Part shown: positions 22,157 through 36,642 of the stretch, one piece after another
How the letters are laid out: every line of letters starts with the position of its first letter
Position numbering within the stretch: the first letter of the stretch is position 1
NCBI GenBank assembly: GCA_036984305.1
Contig: BQWY01000002.1
Location: forward strand, 24,151 to 88,150
Direction: 5' to 3'
Origin: Nitrospira sp.
GTDB taxonomy: Bacteria > Nitrospirota > Nitrospiria > Nitrospirales > Nitrospiraceae
DNA: 64,000 nt
Program-made: the position numbers and the translations under genes
The notes under the pieces: model-generated
Databases searched by the model: none
The model's input: the letters and a program-made list of their open reading frames with translations, nothing else
What the model was told of the DNA's origin: nothing

Positions 22157-22870
22157 TTACGATCGAAACAAGCGATGTTCGAGGCCGCCGTGCCGCATTG
22201 CAAACAGGTCGTGCAGGGGCGTCCATCCGGCCATGACCTGATCTGCCGAGACCGTCACGCTGAGTTCGGCCAGCGCCGGCAGGCATCCCTTGAGCAGACG
22301 TTGGCCGGCTTGTTGCCCGAGCGGCAGAAGTTTCAGCGCCGCGGACACCGTGCCAACGAGCGAGTGATAGAGGAACCCGGCCACGGCATGCTCGCAGGAC
22401 CACCCCTGCGCGCCGAGCACGACCCCCAGTGCAACGGCCAGATGCCCGGGTGTGGACTTGGTTTCGACTGCCGTTGCAAAGTCGGAGACCATGCTAGGGG
22501 TTTCCGGCTCGTCCGACAGCATGCGAGCCACTTGTCGTCCCATCTGGCGACTAGCTTCCCTCGTCGCACTGCTGAGCTTCAAGCTTTCGAGTTCCCAGTC
22601 GCACTCGATCGCGTTCCTCACATCACCGTCTACGGCCGCCTGGCGGGCCCGGGCTACAGCCACAGCCTCCCGTGTCCCCAATCCAAATCGAAGATGCGTC
22701 TGGAGAAAGCTCTGGAGCTCGGCCTCAGCCTTTACCGCCCCACCTTGCACCGCCGCTTCCAGCCCCGACGAGTAGGCGAATCCTCCCGAGGGGAAAAAGC
22801 TATCGATAAGTCGAATGCCCTCCACCAGTTCAAGCGCCGTGAACCTGGTGAGAGGCCTGCGTGACCGCAT
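22157..22870 (-). CDS. ureF: urease accessory protein UreF
   Basis: UreF-like ([18 protein letters not shown]). ATG 22870 lies just after the ureC stop. Confidence 0.85.
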
Positions 22871-22887
22871 GGACACAATCCGTTCAC

Positions 22888-24615
22888 CTAGAAGAGGAAA
22901 TAGCGTTGCGCCATTGGCAGCACCTTGAGCGGATCGCAACTGAGGAGTTGGCCGTCGGCCCGCACTTCGTAGGTCTCGGGATCAACCTCCAAATGCGGCA
23001 TCGCGCTGTTGAGCTTCATGTCTCGTTTCGTAATCGTCCGACACTGCCCCACCGTCGCGATGCGCTTCTGCAATTCCAGTTGGGCGGGCACCCCCCGCTG
23101 CACACCGGCCGCCGAGAGGAAGGTCAGACTGGTCGAGTACGGCGCGCGCCCGAACGATCCAAACATAGGACGGGTGTACACGGGCTGCGGGGTGGGGATC
23201 GACGCGTTTGGATCTCCCATGGCGGCGGACATGGGAAATCCCCCCTTGATGACGATCTCAGGCTTGACGCCGAAGAACGCGGGTCTCCAGAGCACCAAGT
23301 CGGCCAACTTGCCGACCTCGAGCGAGCCGACTTCATGAGCGATGCCATGTGCGATGGCCGGGTTGATCGTATACTTTGCTATGTAGCGGCGTGCCCGAAA
23401 ATTGTCTTGCCGTTCTTCCCCGCCTACCATGTCGTTTTGAGCGAGATGGCCACGCTGGATCTTCATCTTGTGCGCCGTCTGCCACGTGCGGATGATGACC
23501 TCCCCCACACGTCCCATGGCTTGTGAATCGGACGACATCATGCTGATGGCACCCATGTCGTGCAGGATATCCTCCGCGGCAATGGTCTCACGACGTATCC
23601 TCGATTCGGCAAATGCCACGTCCTCCGGCACGCGGGGGTTTAAGTGATGACACACCATCAACATGTCGAGATGTTCATCCATCGTATTGACGGTGAACGG
23701 CATCGTGGGATTGGTCGACGACGGCAGCACGTTGGCCTCGCCGCAGATTTTGATGATGTCCGGCGCATGGCCCCCGCCGGCTCCTTCGGTGTGGAATGAA
23801 TGGATGGTGCGACCCTTGAAGGCCTTGATGGTGTCCTCGAGGAATCCCGCCTCGTTGATGGTATCGGTGTGGATCGCCACTTGCACGTCGTACTCCTCCG
23901 CGACGTCGAGACAGGTCGAAATCGCCGCGGGCGTCGTGCCCCAATCCTCGTGCAGTTTCAACCCGATGGCTCCGGCCTCGACCTGCTCCCGCAAGCCCTC
24001 CGGTCGAGCGGCATTGCCCTTCCCAAAGAATCCGAGATTAATGGGAAATCCGTCCGCGGCCTCCAGCATGCGTCCGATGTTCCATGCGCCTGGGGTACAC
24101 GTCGTCGCGTTGGTCCCGGTCGCGGGACCGGTCCCCCCTCCGAGCAACGTCGTGAGGCCAGCGGCAACAGCCTCGTACACGATCTGGGGACAGATGAAAT
24201 GGATATGACTGTCGATTCCGCCGGCTGTGACGATCCGCCCTTCGGCGGAGAGGGCTTCAGTGCCAGGACCGATCTCCATTCCCGGCGTCACCCCATCCAT
24301 AAGGTCCGGATTGCCGGCTTTGCCGATCCCGACAATGCGACCGTCACGAATACCGATGTCCGCCTTGACCACGCCCCAATAGTCGAGGATCACCGCGTTG
24401 GTGATGACCAGATCGAGTGCCCCCTGCGCACGCGTCGCCGTCGGGGACTGTCCCATCCCATCCCGGATGACCTTCCCTCCGCCGAACTTGGCTTCCTCAC
24501 CGGGAACGGTGAGATCGCGCATGACTTCGATGATCAAATCCGTGTCGGCGAGGCGTATGCGGTCTCCGGTCGTCGGACCATAGAGATCGACGTATTGACG
24601 ACGAGACAAGTTCAT
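22888..24615 (-). CDS. ureC: urease alpha subunit
   Basis: 575 aa. [42 protein letters not shown] and other canonical urease alpha motifs. Confidence 0.97.
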
Positions 24616-27440: not shown

Positions 27441-28588
27441 GTGAGAATCCACTTGCCAGGGCTCGATCCCTTGGCGATTTCCGATTGCTCGGGACGGACC
27501 CAGATCTTGACCCGTCCCCACAATCCGACGATCCCATCCGGCACGAATAAGACCACGGCAACAAACAGTCCCCCGAGTAAGAACGGCCACAGTTCAGGGA
27601 AGTAATTCGTCAACACGCTCCGCCCCCAATTGACGCCGATTGCCCCGATAATCGCCCCAATCAAGGTCCCTCGTCCACCAACCGCCACCCAAATCACCAT
27701 CTCCAGCGAGGGGAGGACCCCGATCTGCGCCGGAGTAATGATTCCGACTTGAGGCACATACAACGCCCCGGCGAGCCCCGCGAGGGCAGCAGAGACCACG
27801 AACACGAACAGCTTGTACTGGGCCGGTGAATACCCCGAAAACAACACGCGCTGCTCGCTGTCTCGAATCGCGACCAGCACTTTCCCCGCCCGGGATTGCA
27901 CGATGGCTCGACAGAGGATATAGGCCACGCCCAGACACACGACCGTGAACAAATAGAGCGACCGCTGTGTCCAAGGCTCGCTCAGGCGGAACCCCAAGAG
28001 CAGCTTGAAATCGGTGAGTCCGTTCGTCCCTCCGAGATTCGTCTCATTGCGGTTGAAAACCAGCCAGGCACAGAGCGCCAACGCTTGGGTGATGATGGCG
28101 AAATATACGCCTTTGATACGGCTTCGAAACGCCAGCGAACCGAAGACAAACGCACAGGCCGCCGGCACCATGAGCGCCCCGAGAACGGCAACGGGGAAAT
28201 AGTGAAATGGCTTCCAAAACAGCGGCAACTCCTGCACCTGGTTCCAGACCATGAAGTCGGGCAGCGCGCTCCCGTACACGCTCTCCGTCCCGATCGAGAG
28301 CGCCATGTACATCCCCATCGCATAGGCCCCCAGGCCGAAAAAGACACCATGACCGAGGCTCAGAATGCCTGCATAGCCCCAGATCAGGTCCAACCCCAGT
28401 GCAAGGATGGCGAACGAAAGGAACTTACCGAATCGATTGAGTGAGAAATCGGATACATGCCACCATGAATCGGCCGGAGGCACGATATTCAGCCCTGGAA
28501 GTACCACCAAAAACACGGCTGCCATGATCCATACGCCGGGGCCCACTTGCAGGCCACGTCGCTGGTCATTGGGCTCAGGATTCGGCAT
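27437..28588 (-). CDS. urtC: urea ABC transporter permease UrtC
   Basis: 383 aa LivM-like polytopic permease in urt context. Confidence 0.87.
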   Translation of the reverse strand: MPNPEPNDQRRGLQVGPGVWIMAAVFLVVLPGLNIVPPADSWWHVSDFSLNRFGKFLSFAILALGLDLIWGYAGILSLGHGVFFGLGAYAMGMYMALSIGTESVYGSALPDFMVWNQVQELPLFWKPFHYFPVAVLGALMVPAACAFVFGSLAFRSRIKGVYFAIITQALALCAWLVFNRNETNLGGTNGLTDFKLLLGFRLSEPWTQRSLYLFTVVCLGVAYILCRAIVQSRAGKVLVAIRDSEQRVLFSGYSPAQYKLFVFVVSAALAGLAGALYVPQVGIITPAQIGVLPSLEMVIWVAVGGRGTLIGAIIGAIGVNWGRSVLTNYFPELWPFLLGGLFVAVVLFVPDGIVGLWGRVKIWVRPEQSEIAKGSSPGKWILT

Positions 28589-30155
28589 GGCGTCCTTTGA
28601 TGGCGAACAGCCCGGAGGGCCGGCGTTGTAGAAATAGCACCACTAGCAGGAGAATCGTGACCTTGGCATATACGGCTCCCATGCTCGGTTCAAAAACTTT
28701 GTTGAGGCCGCCGATGCCAAGCGCCGCCGCAATCGTACCGGCAAGCTTTCCGACGCCACCGGTTACGACGACCATGAAGGAATCGACGATATAGTTCTGC
28801 CCAAGGCCAGGCTCCACATTCCCGATCAGTGTGAGCCCCCATCCCGCAAGTCCTGCAAGCCCGGAGCCGAAGGCAAAGGTATATGCATCGACCTGGCGAG
28901 TCGGGATTCCCAGGCACGCACTCATGTTCCGATTCTGCATGACCGCCCGGACCCGAAGGCCAACTCGCGTGCGGAACAGGAGCGCGTAGATCGCCATCAC
29001 GCTCACCGCCGAGAGCACGATCAAGAAGAGCCGGTTGTACGGGACGAACACGCCAACCATCACCTGCACCCCTCCACTGAACCATGCCGGCGCCGTCACC
29101 GCGGTCAGGTCTCCGAACATGACACGGGCCGACTGAATCAAGATCAAACTGACGCCCCACGTCGCCAACATCGTTTCCAGGGGCCGACCATACAAGAAAC
29201 GAATCACGGACATCTCCAAGAGCAAACCGACCAGAGCGGCCGCGAGAAACGAGCAGGGCAACGCCGCCCAAAAATACCAGTCGAACACCTCGGTGGGCAA
29301 ATACGCTTTGAAGAGTTCCTGGGTGACGAACGTCGCATAGGCCCCGATCATCATCAACTCGCCATGGGCCATGTTGATGACGCCCATGAGGCCAAAGACG
29401 ATCGCCAAGCCCAACGCCATCATTAGGAGGATGGAACTGAGGCTCAACCCGTGAAAAAGCGTTTCGAACACTCCAGCCCACACGCCCCACCGTTCGGTTT
29501 GCTCGATGGCCTGGTGGGCCGTGGCCAATACGTCCGGGCTCGGCTGGCCGCTCCCTGCGCCTGTGGTCTCTGATTCGTCGGCATTCGCCTCTTCGACCAG
29601 CTCCTTCAAACGCGGCAGTCCATTGGGGCTGGCCAGATCGCCCAGCGTACGCACGGCCTCCACTTGTTGCTGGGTGGTACCATGTGCCAGACGAATCAGC
29701 GCGAGTGATTCTCGTAGCGCGTAGCGGACCCATCGATGCGACTCCGAGACCAGCTGGCTCTCGAGCCACGGTACCGCGAGTGGGCTTCCCACCGAACCCA
29801 GATCCGTGGCCGCTGCACGCCGCACTTCTGGGTCGTCGTCGCCAAGCTTCGCGCGATTTTTCAGCAAGTCCAAAACGGGCTTGAGCGCCCGGCGCGTCGA
29901 CCGGTCCGCCTCCTCGCGCAATGCCTCCAACTGTGACAGCAAGTTTGGATCGGAAGATTCGACCAACTCGGCGGTCGCCGCCTCTTGCTCGGCGGGATCC
30001 TCCGCCGTCAACCGAGCAATCGTATGCTCGAGACCGGCGACGGGAGTCACCCCACCGCCGGTCTCGGCCCAACTCCCCGCCGGCCATGCCAACCAGAGCC
30101 ACGCTAGGGCGATCCCGGCCAACACCCGCACCACGGCTCTAGTCGGTTGCCTCAT
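28575..30155 (-). CDS. urtB: urea ABC transporter permease UrtB with an N-terminal HEAT-like periplasmic domain
   Basis: C-terminal LivH-like permease. The N-terminal roughly 200 aa has a signal peptide then helical repeats (DPEVRRAAATDLGSVGSPLAVPWL...). ATG 30155 lies after the urtA stop. Confidence 0.85.
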   Translation of the reverse strand: MRQPTRAVVRVLAGIALAWLWLAWPAGSWAETGGGVTPVAGLEHTIARLTAEDPAEQEAATAELVESSDPNLLSQLEALREEADRSTRRALKPVLDLLKNRAKLGDDDPEVRRAAATDLGSVGSPLAVPWLESQLVSESHRWVRYALRESLALIRLAHGTTQQQVEAVRTLGDLASPNGLPRLKELVEEANADESETTGAGSGQPSPDVLATAHQAIEQTERWGVWAGVFETLFHGLSLSSILLMMALGLAIVFGLMGVINMAHGELMMIGAYATFVTQELFKAYLPTEVFDWYFWAALPCSFLAAALVGLLLEMSVIRFLYGRPLETMLATWGVSLILIQSARVMFGDLTAVTAPAWFSGGVQVMVGVFVPYNRLFLIVLSAVSVMAIYALLFRTRVGLRVRAVMQNRNMSACLGIPTRQVDAYTFAFGSGLAGLAGWGLTLIGNVEPGLGQNYIVDSFMVVVTGGVGKLAGTIAAALGIGGLNKVFEPSMGAVYAKVTILLLVVLFLQRRPSGLFAIKGRHAES

Positions 30156-30172
30156 TGAATCGCTTCGTCGCC

Positions 30173-31543
30173 CTACTTCTTTTTGTAGGTACCCTGATGC
30201 GCAACCCAATCGCATCCCTTGTCTGGATTGGTATACTCACTCCAGGGCTCCGGTTTGACGAGTCCCTTCGAGCGCCAGATCGTCTTGAACTGGCCATCCT
30301 TGCGGATCTCTCCAATCAACACCGGTTTGTGGGTGTGATGATTCGCCGAATCCATCATGATCTCGCCGCCTGGGGCCAAGAACTTGCTGCCATAGACCGC
30401 CTTGCGCACCTTGTCCACCGCGGTCGAGCCAGCCTTCTCCACGGCTTGTTTCCACACATGCACCCCGAAGTAGGCGGCTTCGATCGGATCGTCCGTGACG
30501 CGATTGCCACCATCCGGCAGCTTGTTCTTTTCGCAATACGCCTTGAAGTTTGACACGAATTTTTTATTCTGCGGTGTATCGACGCTCTGGAAATAGTTCC
30601 ATGCCGCGAGGTGCCCCACCAACGGAGTCGTATCCATCCCACGCAACTCGTCTTCGGCGACGCTGAACGCCATGATCGGCGCATCCTCAGACCGAAGTCC
30701 TTGATTGGCGAATTCCTTGTAGAACGGAACATTGCTGTCTCCATTGATGGTGCTGATGACGCAGGCGCCGCCTCCGGCGGAAAATTTCTTAATCTTTCCG
30801 ACGATCGTTTGATAGTCCTGGTGATGAAAGGGCGTATACTCCTCCATGATATTGGCGGCTGCCACCTTCTTCGCCAACAACATGGCGCGAAGAATCTTGT
30901 TCGTCGTGCGTGGATACACGTAGTCAGTGCCCAACAGATAGAACTTCTTGTACTCGCCACCCTCCTTGCTCATGAGATACTCGACTGCCGGCACGGCCTG
31001 TTGATTGACCGCCGCCCCCGTATAGAAGACGTTGTGCGAGCATTCTTCGCCCTCGTATTGGACGGGGTAGAACAGCAAGCCGTTGTTCTTTTCGAATACG
31101 GGAAGCACTGATTTCCGGCTGACGGACGTCCAACACCCGAATACGACCGCCACCTTGTCCTGCAGGAGCAGACCCTTCGCCTTCTCCGCAAACAGATCCC
31201 AGTTCGACGCGGGATCCACCACCACCGGTTCGATCGGTCGTCCCATGACCCCGCCCTTGGCGTTGATCTCTTCGACAGCCATCATGACCACATCCCGCAG
31301 GGATACCTCGCTGATCGCCATCGTGCCGCTCAGCGAATGCAAGATACCGATCTTGATCGGTTCCTTCCCCGCTGCATATGACAATGCCCAATGTCCGAGG
31401 TTCCCCAGGAGCGCAGCCACACCGATCCCGGCCGCCGTTCGCCCCCCCTTGGACAAAAGTTCCCGACGGGAGAGGTTTTCAGGCCCGGCCTCGTCCGCAA
31501 GAGGCTTCTGTGTGTCGGTCGTCGTTTCGTTAATAGGTTTCAT
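30173..31543 (-). CDS. urtA: urea-binding periplasmic protein UrtA (Tat signal)
   Basis: 456 aa. SRRELLSKGGRTAAGIGVAAL signal. LivK/amide-binding fold sequence. AAGGAG before the ATG. Confidence 0.9.
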   Translation of the reverse strand: MKPINETTTDTQKPLADEAGPENLSRRELLSKGGRTAAGIGVAALLGNLGHWALSYAAGKEPIKIGILHSLSGTMAISEVSLRDVVMMAVEEINAKGGVMGRPIEPVVVDPASNWDLFAEKAKGLLLQDKVAVVFGCWTSVSRKSVLPVFEKNNGLLFYPVQYEGEECSHNVFYTGAAVNQQAVPAVEYLMSKEGGEYKKFYLLGTDYVYPRTTNKILRAMLLAKKVAAANIMEEYTPFHHQDYQTIVGKIKKFSAGGGACVISTINGDSNVPFYKEFANQGLRSEDAPIMAFSVAEDELRGMDTTPLVGHLAAWNYFQSVDTPQNKKFVSNFKAYCEKNKLPDGGNRVTDDPIEAAYFGVHVWKQAVEKAGSTAVDKVRKAVYGSKFLAPGGEIMMDSANHHTHKPVLIGEIRKDGQFKTIWRSKGLVKPEPWSEYTNPDKGCDWVAHQGTYKKK

Positions 31544-31568
31544 CGTTCGACTCCTTTTGCTTCTCGGC

Positions 31569-32951
31569 TTAGAAGTTGTACCACCAGGACAGCATGAAGT
31601 TGTCGCCTTGATTCTGGTCTCCAGTTGTCCAGTGCGTCATGAGGTGATTCCACTCCAGTCCGGTATAGAAGTCTCCCCACAGATGTCGGACCGCTGTCAG
31701 ATAGAACCGGTGGTTCAGCAGATATTGGGTATCGGGCCCGGCGGTGGTCCCGGCAAGGTCGGAGTTAAACGGATTGTCGAACCCGTACCCACCGACGAAG
31801 GTATACTTATGAGAGTGGGCATAGTTTAATTCCGCCCATCCCACCATCGTCCGAATCACCTTACCGGTGCCAAGGTTCCGTTCCTGCCCGTAACGAAACC
31901 ATTCCACGCCTAATCCCTGCCCGTAGGCAATTTCACCCGTGAACTTCAGGCGGCTCGTAATGGGCACGACTAACTCGCCGCCGACCACGAATGATTGGAT
32001 ATCCTGTCCAGACGGAATCCCACCGGTTGCCGCGGTGGGAGCGGATCGGTAGTACCGATAGGCCGCATTGGCGGCGATCATGAAACCCTGCTGTTTCCCG
32101 GTGCCGGTGTAGGCCCAGCGCGTTCCCACATACGGCATTTGCACAGGATCGTTGAAGGCGTTCTCCGAACAGGCAAACGCCCCGGTTGGATTCGTACAGC
32201 TCACCGGAGGCGATCCGCCGACGGCGCTTCCCGTGAAGGGCCGCCGCTGTGTCTGCGGCTGGATGGCAGAAAGACCGCGCTCAAACCGCATAACCGTCAA
32301 CAAACCATCCACATGGTCGCTGAATCGATGTTTTAACGTGATTTGCGGCAAGCGCTGCCAGAGATTGCCGTTGTACCCCATGATCGAGAAATCGATGAGA
32401 TTGGGGTGCAATCCCATGATCGGCGTCCAATCTTGCCCGACCGTCAACGTGGATCGCCCATTGTTGGGCGAGTACTTGACGTTGGCCAAACGCAAGCGCG
32501 GGAGAATGTTGCCTGCATTGTCCGTTTGCCCGTAAAAATCTGTCTCAACCACACCGGACAGCGAATGTTTGCCATCCGTTCGATCAGCGCGCAATCCGAA
32601 TACGCTGTATCGCGGATTGAGCGTGCTGCTGCTGTTCGAACTCGTTCCGGCCGCCGTGGCATACCCGTTGAACTGCCCCGGGTCCAGTGGGTTATTATTT
32701 CTCGTACTGTAAATGGCGTCCAATTCGACCCGCCCGTAGGGACTGATGCTGCCTTTTCCGTCCGTGGGAAACGCCGGTGCAATGCATCCTGCGCAAAGAA
32801 TCGGGGGCGGCGTCTCTTCTTCGCGGATGAGACGTCCCGCTCCTGCCGCCTCTTCCGCACTCTGCTCTTCGGCATAGGCCCCGGGCACCGCCACCAGCGT
32901 GGCAATGATCAGCACCCCCAACCACTTTCGATACATACCGTCCGCATTCAT
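31569..32951 (-). CDS. outer-membrane porin, likely urea/short-chain-amide selective (FmdC-like by position)
   Basis: Signal peptide (LGVLIIATLVAVPGAYA). Beta-rich sequence ending in the ...WWYNF C-terminal OMP signature. First gene of the urt unit. AGGAGG lies 9 nt before ATG 32951. Confidence 0.75.
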   Translation of the reverse strand: MNADGMYRKWLGVLIIATLVAVPGAYAEEQSAEEAAGAGRLIREEETPPPILCAGCIAPAFPTDGKGSISPYGRVELDAIYSTRNNNPLDPGQFNGYATAAGTSSNSSSTLNPRYSVFGLRADRTDGKHSLSGVVETDFYGQTDNAGNILPRLRLANVKYSPNNGRSTLTVGQDWTPIMGLHPNLIDFSIMGYNGNLWQRLPQITLKHRFSDHVDGLLTVMRFERGLSAIQPQTQRRPFTGSAVGGSPPVSCTNPTGAFACSENAFNDPVQMPYVGTRWAYTGTGKQQGFMIAANAAYRYYRSAPTAATGGIPSGQDIQSFVVGGELVVPITSRLKFTGEIAYGQGLGVEWFRYGQERNLGTGKVIRTMVGWAELNYAHSHKYTFVGGYGFDNPFNSDLAGTTAGPDTQYLLNHRFYLTAVRHLWGDFYTGLEWNHLMTHWTTGDQNQGDNFMLSWWYNF

Positions 32952-33006
32952 CCCTTCGCCCTCCTGGTTGAGAGACCGTCTAGTCTTGACCGCAGGGCGT
33001 CGGAAC

Positions 33007-33047
33007 AAAAAAAAACGCCCTTCCGGCCCATTTGGACCAAAAGGACG
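33007..33047 (-). terminator. intrinsic terminator C (T2) in the porin-urt leader
   Basis: Minus strand: CGUCCUUUUGGUCC-AAAU-GGGCCGGAAGGGCG (14 bp including G-U pairs) followed by U9. Lies about 55 nt upstream of the porin start codon. Confidence 0.8.
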
Positions 33048-33056
33048 CCGTTGTCC
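33043..33056 (-). promoter_or_regulatory. GGAC-AACGGC-GUCC hexaloop hairpin overlapping the 5' arm of terminator C (candidate P2)
   Basis: Read directly. Loop has A1 and G4. Its 3' arm is shared with the terminator stem. Confidence 0.6.
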
Positions 33057-33070
33057 TCATGTGAACTTGG

Positions 33071-33104
33071 AAAAAAATCGTCGTGGAACCACGCTGTTCC
33101 ACGA
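33071..33104 (-). promoter_or_regulatory. UCGUGGAAC-AGCGUG-GUUCCACGA hexaloop hairpin followed by CGAU7 (candidate P1, itself terminator-like)
   Basis: Perfect 9-bp stem. Hexaloop has A1 and G4. A U7 tract follows 3 nt after the stem, so it may act as a first attenuator. Confidence 0.55.
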
Positions 33105-33128
33105 ACTGACACACACAAAAACGGCCCT

Positions 33129-33158
33129 CTTGTATCGGATCGCTCTCTTGGTTGTCAA
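33129..33158 (-). promoter_or_regulatory. sigma70-like promoter for the porin-urt-ure unit
   Basis: Minus strand: TTGACA-17/18 nt-(A)TACAAG, about 25 nt upstream of the first leader hairpin. Confidence 0.4.
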
Positions 33159-33251
33159 TGGGTTTCTTCTTATCTGCACTCCTGTGGTACACTGCGGCAA
33201 ACCACGAAGTGCCCAGCCGTCCTCATGATGTTTGGGTACCCCCCAGCACAC

Positions 33252-34256
33252 ATGCACATTTTTACGTCCATTTTTCCGTGGCAGCTGGTCACGGGCTCTC
33301 TCCTCTGCCTAATCACGTTTCACGGTTGTGGACTGCTTTCCTCTTCCCGAACAGGGCTCTACGACGGACCTCGGGGACGCGTCTATCTCGAAACCGTCCC
33401 TGAGCGAGGCGCAAGCGGCGGCGTTGGGGTGCGGACTGGCTTGGATGCGTCACATCCCGCTCTCATCGAACCTGATGTGATCGCATCGCTTCTGAGAGGT
33501 CTTCAGATCAAAGAAACCTCAAGTTTCGGTGCGTTGTTGGACACGTCCGGAACGCCACGGCCGATCTTTACCAAGGAAGAGGCCGCTTTTTTGGCTCCGC
33601 TCCTGAGCTCGGCCTTGGCGAAGGCCTCTCCTTCCCAATTTGTCGTGTTTGAACTCCAGCAGCCACCGACCGGTTATCGCGCAAAGCGGGTTCCTGGAGC
33701 CGGAGCCGGCTCGTCCATTCCCAGTCCCGAACAGGTGAGCACAGAGGAAACCTCGGGGGCGCTGTACGTCTTTGGCCGCTCGTTGCACGCCGTGTTGACG
33801 AAATTCCGTTACGTGCCCGACCCACCCGACACGATCCGGATGGCCAATCGTCTCCTGCCGGATCCCACCGGTCTGGCCGAGTACAAGGTGTCCTTCTCTC
33901 CGGCGGCCGCTCTTCGACCAGATACGTATGCTCGCGAGGCACTGCCGGTTTCAGACGAACTACCCTCGTTTGTCATCGACTATCAAGCACTCCCCAGTTT
34001 GGTCGTAACGCCCGCCCCTGCGCCCGGGGCGTCGCAGGCATCCGGGACCACGTCCGCACCTGCGCCGTCGCGGCCGGCAAGCGCAGAGACCCCACCCCAG
34101 AATCAAATTCGTGAATTGAAAGATCTTGTTGTCGAGAAGGATCTGGAATTGGAACGATTGCGGAAAGAACTTGAACAGCTGAAACGGCGGCCGCCGACAC
34201 CGGGGCAGGCCCCTTCGAAAGTACCACCTGGCGGAAAAGTTACTCCCGCGCCGTAG
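33252..34256 (+). CDS. hypothetical secreted protein/lipoprotein with a C-terminal coiled coil and Pro-rich tail
   Basis: In-frame part of the 637-aa ORF that does not overlap the porin gene. Hydrophobic N-terminus with ...LLCLITFHGC. C-terminus IRELKDLVVEKDLELERLRKELEQLKRRPPTPGQAP. Start is uncertain (ATG 33225, 33228 or 33252) and has no clear SD. Confidence 0.5.
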   Translation: MHIFTSIFPWQLVTGSLLCLITFHGCGLLSSSRTGLYDGPRGRVYLETVPERGASGGVGVRTGLDASHPALIEPDVIASLLRGLQIKETSSFGALLDTSGTPRPIFTKEEAAFLAPLLSSALAKASPSQFVVFELQQPPTGYRAKRVPGAGAGSSIPSPEQVSTEETSGALYVFGRSLHAVLTKFRYVPDPPDTIRMANRLLPDPTGLAEYKVSFSPAAALRPDTYAREALPVSDELPSFVIDYQALPSLVVTPAPAPGASQASGTTSAPAPSRPASAETPPQNQIRELKDLVVEKDLELERLRKELEQLKRRPPTPGQAPSKVPPGGKVTPAP

Positions 34257-34265
34257 CACCCGCCG

Positions 34266-35534
34266 CTAGGATGCCGTCCCTGCCCCGCCAGCCTGCCCGT
34301 CGATCTCTCCGGCCAGTAAAATGGCCTCAGCAACCTCACGCATCGATTTACGCATCGCCATGCTTTGCCGTTGAATGAGGCGGAACGCCTCCTCCTCCGA
34401 GAGTCGCCGTGTCCGCATAATATAGCCCTTCGCGCGCTCCACCACTTTGCGCACCGCGAGTGCCTCCTGCATCTCGAAGGACTTGTCGATCAGCGTCGTG
34501 TGCTCGATCGCGATGGCCGCTTGATTGGCGATAGCCTGAAGGATCTTCGTTTCCTCGTTGGTGAACTCATGGGGAACGGAGGTGTAGGTGTTGATGACGC
34601 CGACGACCTTTTCTCGGACCAGCATCGGAACGGACAACAGGGAATAGAGTCCTTCGCGCCGTGCCAGATCTGGATACATGAAATCGTGATCTGTTGTGAC
34701 GTCCGGCACCATGATGGGGCGCCGTTCCTGCACGGCGCGACCACTGATGCTCTGGCCGACCCGCAGGTTTGGCTTGCGCCGATAGGCTTCGCTGAGGCTT
34801 TGGGTTGCCACGATTCGCAGTTCGCCCTTGTCGTGATCCAGCACCATGATCGAGCAGATCTTTGAGTTCATGAGTTGCGCAACCATCGCAACGATCAGTT
34901 GGAAGACGTCCTCAATCAATCGATTGGAGGTCACCGTTTCGGAAACCTGTGACAACGTCTCGACCTGAAGAGCCTTGCGCCGCATCTCTTCATAGAGTCG
35001 GGCATTCTCGATGGCTCCGCCCACCTGATTGGCAATCGTGGTCAGCAGGGCCAGTTCGTCTGTACCGTACCGGCGCGGTCGCTTGTGCTGCACATTGATG
35101 ACCCCGACCACTTCCTTCTTGGTCAAGATGGGCACGGACACAAACGCCTGATAGCGGTCTTCCGGCAAGTTGTGAAAAAACTTGAAGCGTGGATCGTCAC
35201 TGGCGCTGCTGGGAATGACAACGCTGGTCCGCTCTCGGGCGACCCACCCTGTGATACCTTCACCCAATCCGATCGTAATTCTGCCAATCAGGCGAGGATG
35301 CGGATTTTTCGATGCCCGCAGAACCAACTCATGCTTGTCCGCGGACAAGAGATAGAGCAGGCAAGCGTCGCATTTAGTCACCTCGACCACCACATCCACG
35401 ATATGGCGGAGGACCGCCGCGAGATCAAGGGTGTTGCTGATGGAGTCGCTGATACGATGTAGCACCTCGACTTCGCGCGTTTTGGTGCGCAAAGCGTGTT
35501 GGATTCGCTGCGTCGAATTGGAACTACGTTTCAT
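34266..35534 (-). CDS. GAF-GAF-ANTAR RNA-binding antitermination regulator
   Basis: Two GAF-like blocks (LEVLHRISDSISNTLDL...GITGWV; LSQVSETVTSNRL...). C-terminal ANTAR-like helix bundle (ALAVRKVVERAKGYIMRTRRLSEEEAFRLIQRQSMAMRKSMREVAEAIL). ATG 35534 lies 8 nt after the aroB stop. Confidence 0.8.
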   Translation of the reverse strand: MKRSSNSTQRIQHALRTKTREVEVLHRISDSISNTLDLAAVLRHIVDVVVEVTKCDACLLYLLSADKHELVLRASKNPHPRLIGRITIGLGEGITGWVARERTSVVIPSSASDDPRFKFFHNLPEDRYQAFVSVPILTKKEVVGVINVQHKRPRRYGTDELALLTTIANQVGGAIENARLYEEMRRKALQVETLSQVSETVTSNRLIEDVFQLIVAMVAQLMNSKICSIMVLDHDKGELRIVATQSLSEAYRRKPNLRVGQSISGRAVQERRPIMVPDVTTDHDFMYPDLARREGLYSLLSVPMLVREKVVGVINTYTSVPHEFTNEETKILQAIANQAAIAIEHTTLIDKSFEMQEALAVRKVVERAKGYIMRTRRLSEEEAFRLIQRQSMAMRKSMREVAEAILLAGEIDGQAGGAGTAS

Positions 35535-35541
35535 TGTTTCC

Positions 35542-36642
35542 CTAATCCCGGGTCCGTGTACGATACCACCGCGCGAACGTTGACCGTCCGATCGGTGCGA
35601 TCCGCACGGCTCCGATTCGTTCAGGCCATACACCATGAACCTGGCCCTGCACCACCTTTTTGTCGTGCTGCATCGCGTCCCACAGCTGGCGCTCGGTGCA
35701 TCGCGGCAGACGGCTTGGCAACCCGGCGGCCTCCACCAATGTGAGGATACGTTCCGGCACGTCCAACCGGCAGTAACCGAGCTTGTGCGAGATCCACGCT
35801 TCCTGCACCATTCCTATGGCCACCGCCTCACCGTGAATCAACGCGCGATAGTGTCCGAGCGTCTCCAATGCATGCCCGATCGTGTGTCCGTAGTTCAGGA
35901 TACGGCGACGATCGCCTTCCCGTTCGTCCGATGCCACGACCTCGGCCTTGATCTCACACGAACGCTGAATGATCTTCGCAATCGTGTCTTCATCCATCTT
36001 CAGGACGCTGGACATCGTCCGCTCGAGATACACGAAGAATTCCTGGTCGGCAATGACACCATATTTGATAACCTCCGCCACTCCCCCGAGCCGCTGTCGA
36101 AGCGGCAATGTCCGAAGGGTAGACGGATCGACCAGTACGGCGCGCGGCTGGTAGAAAGCACCGATAAGATTCTTCCCTTGGGGGTGGTTAATGCCGGTTT
36201 TTCCCCCGACACTAGAATCGACCTGGGCCACCACAGTGGTGGGTACCTGGACAAAGGGGATCCCGCGCAGGTAGCTCGCTGCGGCAAATCCCGTCAAGTC
36301 ACCGACAACCCCACCGCCGAGCGCAACGAGAAACGAACTGCGCTCCAGCCGGGCTTCCACGAAGCGGTCCAACACCCGCCCAAGCCAAACGAGGCTCTTG
36401 GCTCGTTCGCCGGCTGGCACCGTCACCAGCTGCGCGCCCAACCCCGCCCGCCGAATGGACCGTACGGCTGTCGGAGCATAGAGTCCCCCCACGGTCCGAT
36501 CGGTTACAATGCATACGGTTCCCTTGGCGCCGAGACGCCGGAGATGCCCTCCAAGCTCTCCGAGCAAACCGGATTGAATGGTGATGTCATAGCTACGATC
36601 GCCAAGGACAACCGGCACCGATATGGAAGCCATTGCCGTCAT
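35542..36642 (-). CDS. aroB: 3-dehydroquinate synthase
   Basis: AroB motifs (GGGVVGDLTGFAA, GGKTGINHPQGKNLIGAFYQP, LNYGHTIGHA). Start is ATG 36642 or 36633. The upstream 76 codons of the ORF look non-coding. Confidence 0.9.
   Translation of the reverse strand: MTAMASISVPVVLGDRSYDITIQSGLLGELGGHLRRLGAKGTVCIVTDRTVGGLYAPTAVRSIRRAGLGAQLVTVPAGERAKSLVWLGRVLDRFVEARLERSSFLVALGGGVVGDLTGFAAASYLRGIPFVQVPTTVVAQVDSSVGGKTGINHPQGKNLIGAFYQPRAVLVDPSTLRTLPLRQRLGGVAEVIKYGVIADQEFFVYLERTMSSVLKMDEDTIAKIIQRSCEIKAEVVASDEREGDRRRILNYGHTIGHALETLGHYRALIHGEAVAIGMVQEAWISHKLGYCRLDVPERILTLVEAAGLPSRLPRCTERQLWDAMQHDKKVVQGQVHGVWPERIGAVRIAPIGRSTFARWYRTRTRD

Follow-up and report, generated by a model that had tools for sequence, protein, structure and literature searches.

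A probable ANTAR-type antitermination leader upstream of the porin, urea-transport and urease genes of Nitrospira

As dominant nitrite oxidisers and complete nitrifiers of soils, waters and wastewater plants, Nitrospira shape nitrogen cycling through their use of urea and cyanate. The locus examined here, part of a 64-kb stretch of Nitrospira DNA (the window, by which we mean that whole stretch), raises the question of what decides whether a transcript started in front of the genes for urea uptake and urease is carried on into them. The element in question is the minus-strand leader between 33158 and 33007, which precedes a predicted porin gene, urtABCDE, ureABC and urease accessory genes. A preliminary description made from the letters of the window had recognised in it two hairpins with six-base loops, the second overlapping a terminator, and had read this arrangement as a substrate for an ANTAR protein. 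That reading is supported by a neighbouring gene for a GAF-GAF-ANTAR protein, by conservation in 61 leaders, by covariation in the first hairpin and by recurrence of the motif. The element is very likely an ANTAR-type antitermination leader, and we consider it quite probable that it works as a transcription attenuator whose default stop is overridden by a protein.

Anatomy and folding of the leader

The leader opens with the -35 hexamer TTGACA (33158-33153) and the -10 hexamer TACAAG (33134-33129), which aligns with TATAAG, TATACA and TATAGA of orthologous leaders. The spacer, given before as 17 or 18 nucleotides (nt), is 18 nt, and from the position of this promoter transcription is predicted to start near 33122. 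The first hairpin, P1 (33104-33081), was delimited by sequence, folding and covariation. Its 9-bp stem, with 5' arm UCGUGGAAC (33104-33096) and 3' arm GUUCCACGA (33089-33081), carries the hexaloop AGCGUG (33095-33090), which has A at position 1 and G at position 4 (A1 and G4). Weak pairs can extend P1 to 33110-33078, and the extended hairpin has a folding energy of -14.7 kcal/mol. The 3' arm is followed by CGA and then by a run of seven U residues (U7, 33077-33071), which begins 3 nt past the perfect stem.

The core of the second hairpin, P2, consists of GGAC (33056-33053), the loop AACGGC (33052-33047), again with A1 and G4, and GUCC (33046-33043). It can be extended to GAGGAC/GUCCUU (33058-33041), giving a stem of 4-6 bp and a folding energy of -6.9 kcal/mol, and is the predicted antiterminator element. 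The entire linker between P1 and P2 is 24 nt with CGAU7 included, and the further 23-nt linker beyond CGAU7 that had been described does not exist.

P2 runs into an intrinsic terminator (33049-33007, U-tract included) with 5' arm CGUCCUUUUGGUCC (33047-33034), loop AAAU, 3' arm GGGCCGGAAGGGCG (33029-33016) and nine U residues (U9, 33015-33007). The stem comprises 14 bp, four of them G-U pairs, or 16 pairs according to a terminator scanner; with a G+C-rich stem-loop followed immediately by a U-run, it has the canonical form of an intrinsic terminator. Its folding energy is -25.5 kcal/mol (z = -5.3). The terminator 5' arm includes the last P2 loop bases and the P2 3' arm: C33047 and 33046-33043 (up to 33041 in the extended hairpin) would be needed by both structures, which makes them mutually exclusive, as had been proposed. 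Because the terminator is far more stable than P2, and because P1 in its extended form is itself stable, the default fold is P1 plus terminator. The leader as a whole is structured (z = -4.3). A consensus scanner rated both P1 with CGAU7 and the P2-overlapping hairpin with U9 as terminator-like. Downstream, the Shine-Dalgarno (SD) sequence AGGAGG (32965-32960) precedes the porin ATG (32951-32949), which lies 55 nt past U9. The promoter, both hexaloop hairpins, the terminator, the SD sequence and the start codon were all found where the preliminary description had placed them.

Two other roles for these hairpins were considered and discarded. A bidirectional terminator that also serves plus-strand transcripts is not indicated, as the plus strand has no T-run after either hairpin. 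Nor do they terminate a same-strand gene further upstream: a divergent plus-strand gene fills the 1.1-kb gap, and the leader has a conserved promoter of its own in the intergenic spacer. In particular, P1 is not the terminator of such a gene, because the leader sits in a divergent intergenic spacer.

Conservation, covariation and the U7 tract

Orthologues of the ANTAR protein (71-89% identity) were found in 263 Nitrospira loci, 80 of which were fetched for comparison. Conservation was counted over 61 distinct leaders, with P1, the linker and the promoter scored in 57 of them. The gene order aroB, ANTAR gene, divergent lipoprotein gene, porin, urtA is present in 32 of the 80 loci, and in all 32 the porin gene is preceded by a pair of AxxGxx hexaloop hairpins and by the same terminator. 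The motif also lies 5' of the porin gene in 34/34 metagenomic porin loci. The P1 loop has A1 in 54/57 leaders and G4 in 56/57; both bases are present in the P2 loop of all 61 leaders, and the P2 core GGAC/GUCC is invariant. The promoter is conserved to a similar degree, an exact TTGACA being found 16-19 nt 5' of a TA-initial hexamer, the candidate -10 element, in 54/57 leaders. The linker, 24 nt in the window, has a median of 22 nt and a range of 7-32 nt, and its sequence is otherwise unconserved. The loop AGCGUG of the window's P1 recurs in one orthologous leader, L097.

The preliminary description had proposed that a comparison of orthologues might reveal compensatory changes, and these occur in P1, where both sides change in 10 of 12 pairs (74 cells). 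The covariation score of 0.334 compares with 0.152 in shuffled alignments (0/500 reach the score) and with at most 0.13 when the partners are slid. The result was repeated on an independent metagenomic set and on all genome-locus matches. The two top pairs, A-U and the closing C-G, never vary in either hairpin. In P2, 96% of cells are paired, and in the terminator, assessed in 32 orthologues, 99.6%.

A covariance model (R1) was built from 30 orthologous leaders with the window excluded. In a scan of the 64-kb window R1 recovered the leader with 45.4 bits (E = 3e-10), a search that had also been suggested beforehand. It returned four minus-strand intergenic matches in all, each 5' of a nitrogen operon, and nothing else below E = 0.2. 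A pattern scan that required two A1/G4 hexaloop hairpins with a T-run after them gave five sites in the window, where shuffled sequences lead one to expect 0.1, and the minimum free energy (MFE) fold of each of the five consists of P1 and a terminator that engulfs P2. Across the 80 genome loci R1 gave 62 matches, 62/62 on the strand of the ANTAR gene and, among the matches listed, all 3' of it.

The U7 tract after P1 stands apart from this conserved architecture. A T-run of at least six directly after P1 is present in the window alone and absent from the 56 other leaders; a T6 elsewhere in the linker of L010 is unrelated to the U7 position. The closest relative found, L115, encodes a porin 86% identical to that of the window and has the same GGAAC/GUUCC top of P1, without a U-tract. 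This comparison reaches as far as the relatives at hand: a metagenome scan gave porins of up to 76% identity, a protein search gave the one contig at 86%, and no closer kin was found. We regard U7 as a peculiarity of this lineage that could act at most as a leaky constitutive stop or a pause, with leaky stopping, pausing and neutral drift all possible. That P1 and U7 together form an unregulated stop or pause in this one lineage, lowering basal expression or giving time for P1 to be loaded before P2 appears, is somewhat unlikely. The geometry is terminator-like, and the revised EutV model, in which a dimer occupies P1 first and P2 later during transcription, makes a pause plausible; against this, U7 is not conserved, a 3-nt spacer and bulges separate the solid stem from the U-run, and neutral drift could suffice in a linker whose sequence is unconserved.

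A candidate regulator and the proposed mechanism

In the mechanism that we propose for the attenuator, a conserved, constitutive sigma-70-like promoter would start the transcript about 170 nt upstream of the porin start codon. In the default state the strong terminator with its U9 tract would form, and RNA polymerase would be stopped before the porin gene. An active antiterminator protein would bind hexaloop hairpin P1 and then P2, both of which present A1, G4 and a conserved AC/GU stem top, and would hold the weak P2 closed. The first bases of the terminator 5' arm would thereby be withheld, and polymerase would read through into the urea-uptake and urease genes. The most likely candidate for this antiterminator is the product of the neighbouring GAF-GAF-ANTAR gene, which lies immediately upstream in the same orientation.

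The gene for this candidate antiterminator (34266-35636, minus strand) is the next same-strand gene upstream of the leader, is syntenic in 80/80 fetched loci and encodes the only ANTAR domain within the window. The domain (Pfam PF03861, residues 389-440) scores 68.8 bits against a cutoff of 27.3 and is preceded by two GAF domains. The ANTAR segment aligns with Rv1626, EutV and NasR. Opposite the Tyr of EutV chain 6wsh (EEAYQML) it has a Phe (EEAFRLI), as does Rv1626; NasR has Trp there. Applying a chain-numbering offset of 2, we infer that the aligned EutV residue is Tyr164, which stacks on the loop G4 base (PMC8934654). The first GAF domain resembles that of EI-Ntr/PtsP (1e-41) and the second that of NifA (3e-30). 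GAF domains of these types bind glutamine (PMC4848567) and 2-oxoglutarate (PMC8219145). The adjacent protein is probably the regulator of the leader.

Ramesh et al. (2012) defined the RNA targets of ANTAR proteins (PMC3369931), and most elements of their definition are present here. The leader has two neighbouring stem-loops of at least 3 bp (9 bp in P1 and 4-6 bp in P2, kept in orthologues), hexaloops with A1 and G4 in both, and a second hairpin that is exclusive with an intrinsic terminator. The closing C-G and the adjacent A-U pair are invariant in both hairpins; at the level of the overall pattern, this is the kind of conservation known from the sequence-specific closing pairs of eut. An ANTAR protein, often encoded nearby in known cases, is encoded at 34266-35636.

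Among the known systems close to the leader are the EutV-controlled eut leaders of Enterococcus faecalis, with which it shares the two A1/G4 hexaloop hairpins and conserved closing pairs (PMC3369931, PMC8934654), a P2 3' arm that lies in the intrinsic terminator, termination by default and the presence of several leaders per gene cluster. It differs in that the Nitrospira candidate is a one-component tandem-GAF protein, whereas EutV is a response regulator with a kinase; in its linker of ~22-24 nt, compared with 5-12 nt in eut; and in its targets, which are nitrogen-scavenging rather than ethanolamine genes. The NasR/nasF system of Klebsiella oxytoca and the AmiR/amiE system of Pseudomonas aeruginosa likewise combine a one-component or partner-controlled ANTAR antiterminator with a nitrogen-source operon and have an A1/G4 hexaloop upstream of a terminator (PMC3369931, PMC7496416). 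Their sensors, however, are NIT (nitrate) or AmiC (amide), not a tandem GAF, and each serves a single operon, unlike the apparent multi-operon regulon in Nitrospira. In Geobacter sulfurreducens, GnfK/GnfR govern a nitrogen regulon in which an ANTAR protein relieves the leader terminators of nifH, glnK and amtB (PMC2995071), but GnfR is a response regulator that is phosphorylated and belongs to a sigma-54 cascade, while the Nitrospira promoters resemble constitutive sigma-70 promoters and one protein combines the sensor with the ANTAR domain. The gene set of Nitrospira recurs in the predictions for Desulfotomaculum (PMC3369931 supplement), which include urea transporter and urease genes, glnA and amt/P-II, with tandem matches before urea genes; these concern Firmicutes and response-regulator ANTAR proteins and are predictions only. 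The same supplement holds no Nitrospira entry.

Several observations weigh against this interpretation of the leader and its regulator. The linker of 24 nt is outside the short range of 5-12 nt in eut-like leaders; the 2012 search model allowed a variable linker (PMC3369931), but antitermination by EutV is abolished when the eutP linker is lengthened to 14 nt in vivo (PMC3369931) or by 20 nt in vitro (PMC8934654). P2 and the terminator are nearly invariant and yield no covariation for that reason, so that for them there is conservation alone. Scanning positions 30000-36000 with the Rfam covariance models at E <= 10 gave no relevant match, only a chance microRNA match elsewhere. The GAF similarities are at the level of the domain and far below the family cutoffs, and ligand specificity cannot be read from them. 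Finally, the ANTAR gene is a conserved core gene that lies beside aroB with or without urt, and its adjacency to urt may therefore partly reflect the place where the operon was inserted.

This last point, together with the fact that our search for other ANTAR genes spans 64 kb of the genome, favours the idea that the same attenuator is run by another ANTAR protein or RNA-binding factor encoded elsewhere, with the neighbour adjacent by synteny only. We consider this quite unlikely. The first operon 3' of the ANTAR gene always has such a leader, be it urt, nadE or others, the R1 matches in the 80 loci keep without exception to the strand of the ANTAR gene, and the window contains no further ANTAR domain.

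The preliminary description had also suggested that U7 marks a second termination checkpoint, in other words that P1 with U7 is a first regulated terminator and P2 with U9 a second one. The terminator-like rating of P1 with CGAU7, and the weak extra pairs that bring the P1 stem up to the U-run, are in its favour. It is nevertheless very unlikely, and we reject a second ANTAR-controlled checkpoint. The U-run is unique to the window among the 57 leaders and is missing from L115. What is more, ANTAR proteins bind and stabilise P1 (PMC3369931, PMC8934654), and since ANTAR binding needs or stabilises the folded hairpin, it could not relieve a stop that depends on P1. No alternative pairing that melts P1 is evident in the transcribed 5' part, and the helper helix of the MFE fold draws on promoter bases 5' of the predicted start.

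Control mainly at the level of translation, as described for mycobacteria, would be a different use of the same dual-hexaloop recognition motif. According to bioRxiv 10.1101/660928, mycobacterial ANTAR RNAs share this motif but overlap the start sites of open reading frames and repress translation, whereas P2 of Nitrospira overlaps a terminator; actinobacterial ANTAR RNAs that repress translation are described in the same text. The urt leaders do contain a conserved element, CCCUCCGG(UC), 8-15 nt past the U-tract (alignment A1, columns ~160-170), which can pair with the SD sequence and also with the terminator 3' arm. In the window it takes the form CGCCCUGCGGUC (32999-32988, minus strand), a variant of the conserved CCCUCCGGUC with complementarity both to the SD region and to the 3' arm of the terminator. 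If the terminator 3' arm is included, RNAalifold pairs it with CCCUCCGG in the consensus, and L096 offers one compensatory case; given only the post-terminator region, RNAalifold finds no consensus helix between an anti-SD and the SD. Withholding the terminator 5' arm lifts the median predicted accessibility of the SD from 0.07 to 0.41 (n = 54, Wilcoxon p = 2e-8); for the window variant, CCCUGCGG, predicted accessibility is unchanged, 0.20 in both states. Translation as the main level of ANTAR action is most improbable, as P2 overlaps a canonical terminator, the ribosome-binding site lies ~75 nt downstream, the consensus helix is lacking and SD accessibility in the window does not respond; at best it would be an extra layer over termination control. 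On the basis of these folding predictions we hypothesise that such a layer is coupled to antitermination through the CCCUCCGG element. Once freed, the 3' arm of the terminator may capture the anti-SD CCCUCCGG in many urt leaders, so that only protein-bound read-through transcripts would be translated.

A protein-free device, either a riboswitch or a leader-peptide attenuator, is scarcely credible: the leader is structured and a 26-codon open reading frame (ORF) starts from an AUG just 5' of P2, but the Rfam scan found no family, the conserved part consists of two minimal hairpins without a core resembling a ligand pocket, and the AUG lacks an SD sequence and is not kept in orthologues, on which grounds leader-peptide attenuation was rejected.

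Further leaders and neighbouring genes

On the minus strand the window reads, in order, aroB, the GAF-GAF-ANTAR gene, the leader, porin-urt-ure, a second leader, nadE-amt-glnB-glnD-glnA, two tandem leaders, an operon for an NMT1-like substrate-binding protein (SBP) and an ATP-binding cassette (ABC) transporter (permease, ATPase) with cynS and amt, a candidate leader, a small ORF and amt. The second ANTAR-type leader (20496-20353), 5' of nadE-amt-glnB-glnD-glnA, has its own TTGACA and TATAAC separated by 18 nt, the hairpins UGGGAC-AAAGGC-GUCUCG (P1) and GGAC-AAUGAC-GUCC (P2), and a terminator with U9. It was matched by R1 at 20461-20390 (32.2 bits, E = 1e-6) and is kept 5' of nadE in 18 other Nitrospira loci, N. 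defluvii included. In loci without urt, such as that of N. defluvii, the ANTAR gene is followed by a leader and nadE.

Two tandem ANTAR-type attenuators (12488-12243), identified by R1 and the pattern scan, precede the SBP/ABC/cynS/amt operon. R1 matched them at 12448-12379 (25.2 bits, E = 8e-5) and 12343-12275 (16.2 bits, E = 0.019); the P2 loop of the second, GACGGC, has G and not A at position 1. The element at 6862-6766, 5' of an ORF of ~68 codons and amt, has the hairpins UCGAC-AAUGCG-GUCGA (P1) and GCCGGC-AAAGGC-GCCGGC (P2), a 5-nt linker, a GC-only P2 stem and a long branched terminator that uses the P2 3' arm and ends in U6. The urt-trained R1 gave no match to it, and we list it as a candidate attenuator only.

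Since near-identical P1/P2 modules stand before the nadE and ABC/cynS/amt operons, the signal is probably nitrogen status and not urea. The resemblances of the two GAF domains suggest that nitrogen status could well be sensed through them as 2-oxoglutarate and/or glutamine, a tentative assignment. The leader appears to be part of a genus-wide nitrogen regulon. It is possible, and we put this forward more tentatively still, that the tandem-GAF ANTAR protein is a master nitrogen regulator of Nitrospira. By sensing 2-oxoglutarate or glutamine directly, it would turn on a nitrogen-scavenging supercluster (porin-urt-ure, nadE-amt-glnB-glnD-glnA, the ABC transporter with cynS and amt, and further porin and amt genes) by antitermination alone, at leaders whose transcription is initiated constitutively. 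If true, this would be the first characterised GAF-ANTAR system and the first described mechanism of nitrogen control in Nitrospira.

As of 2020, the characterisation of a GAF-ANTAR protein had not been reported (PMC7496416). We found no paper that connects Nitrospira to ANTAR or to antitermination, and the searchable literature yielded nothing on the regulation of nitrogen uptake in this genus. A review of Nitrospira nitrogen gene clusters names UrtABCDE, UreABC, NadE, GlnB, GlnD, GlnA, CynS and AmtB in a figure legend, and a term search of it found no leader-based regulation. ANTAR leaders before urea and nitrogen genes had been predicted in 2012, and in Geobacter an ANTAR response regulator is known to antiterminate nitrogen genes; the variant features here are the tandem-GAF sensor, the long linker and the scope of the regulon in an ecologically important genus. 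The leader and its sister leaders offer a concrete mechanism and a candidate regulator for the control of nitrogen uptake in Nitrospira, and a natural model for the GAF-ANTAR subclass. That predicted ANTAR dual hairpins occur with linkers about twice what eut tolerates also matters for searches for ANTAR targets.

Other R1 matches in the 80 genome loci precede a different porin and amt, or lipoprotein genes. ANTAR-type leaders stand before a different predicted outer-membrane protein in L043 (10235-10304) and L064 (9572-9641); in L043 an ammonium transporter follows directly after that protein, and L064 ends within the first gene. A second urt-type leader lies ~1.1 kb 5' of the porin leader in L020 (4993-5061), L098 (1181-1249), L084 (1239-1301), L088 (367-427) and L081 (71-130), and in L020, the one locus inspected, it precedes a lipoprotein-like gene of ~143 aa. 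Relic-like urt-type leaders were found in L017 (8365-8444), L025 (5434-5504), L027 (3896-3963), L030 (8370-8440), L046 (9461-9531), L055 (9244-9313), L060 (8409-8479) and L072 (8342-8412). Their P1 and P2 are still matched by the covariance model (41-51 bits), but decay has reached the U-tract and the 3' arm of the terminator (…GGGCCTTTTCC…). To their 3' side are genes for a ~745-aa protein with an N-terminal hydrophobic segment and for a 214-aa protein read as a LuxR-type response regulator. These relics suggest that the urea cluster was lost in that clade.

The operon downstream of the leader (32951-20560, minus strand) was assigned from Pfam matches and the predicted porin fold and contains the porin gene, urtABCDE, a lipoprotein gene, ureABC, an ORF at 22157-22939 (probably ureF, a label given outside the family scans), ureG and ureD. 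From the tight same-strand packing, the porin-urt-ure genes probably form one transcription unit. The first gene (32951-31569) is annotated as hypothetical in databases. The name porin, used in the preliminary description, is reasonable on structural grounds, although neither Pfam nor NCBIfam gave a match: the AlphaFold model, with a predicted local distance difference test (pLDDT) score of 66, forms a barrel of 16 strands and matches DcaP, OmpU, Omp32, PorB and OmpF, with DcaP (6eus, E = 1e-17) the closest fold, followed by general porins.

The divergent plus-strand gene (~33225-34256) encodes an exported protein of ~343 aa, whose N-terminus is lipobox-like and whose C-terminus is coiled and rich in Pro and Ala. 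The protein has no Pfam or NCBIfam match, and in most loci its gene is retained, with the ANTAR gene on one side and the porin leader on the other. Within the operon, UrtB (28575-30215, minus strand) has an N-terminal extension of HEAT repeats (Pfam HEAT_2, HEAT_PBS) fused to its permease domain.

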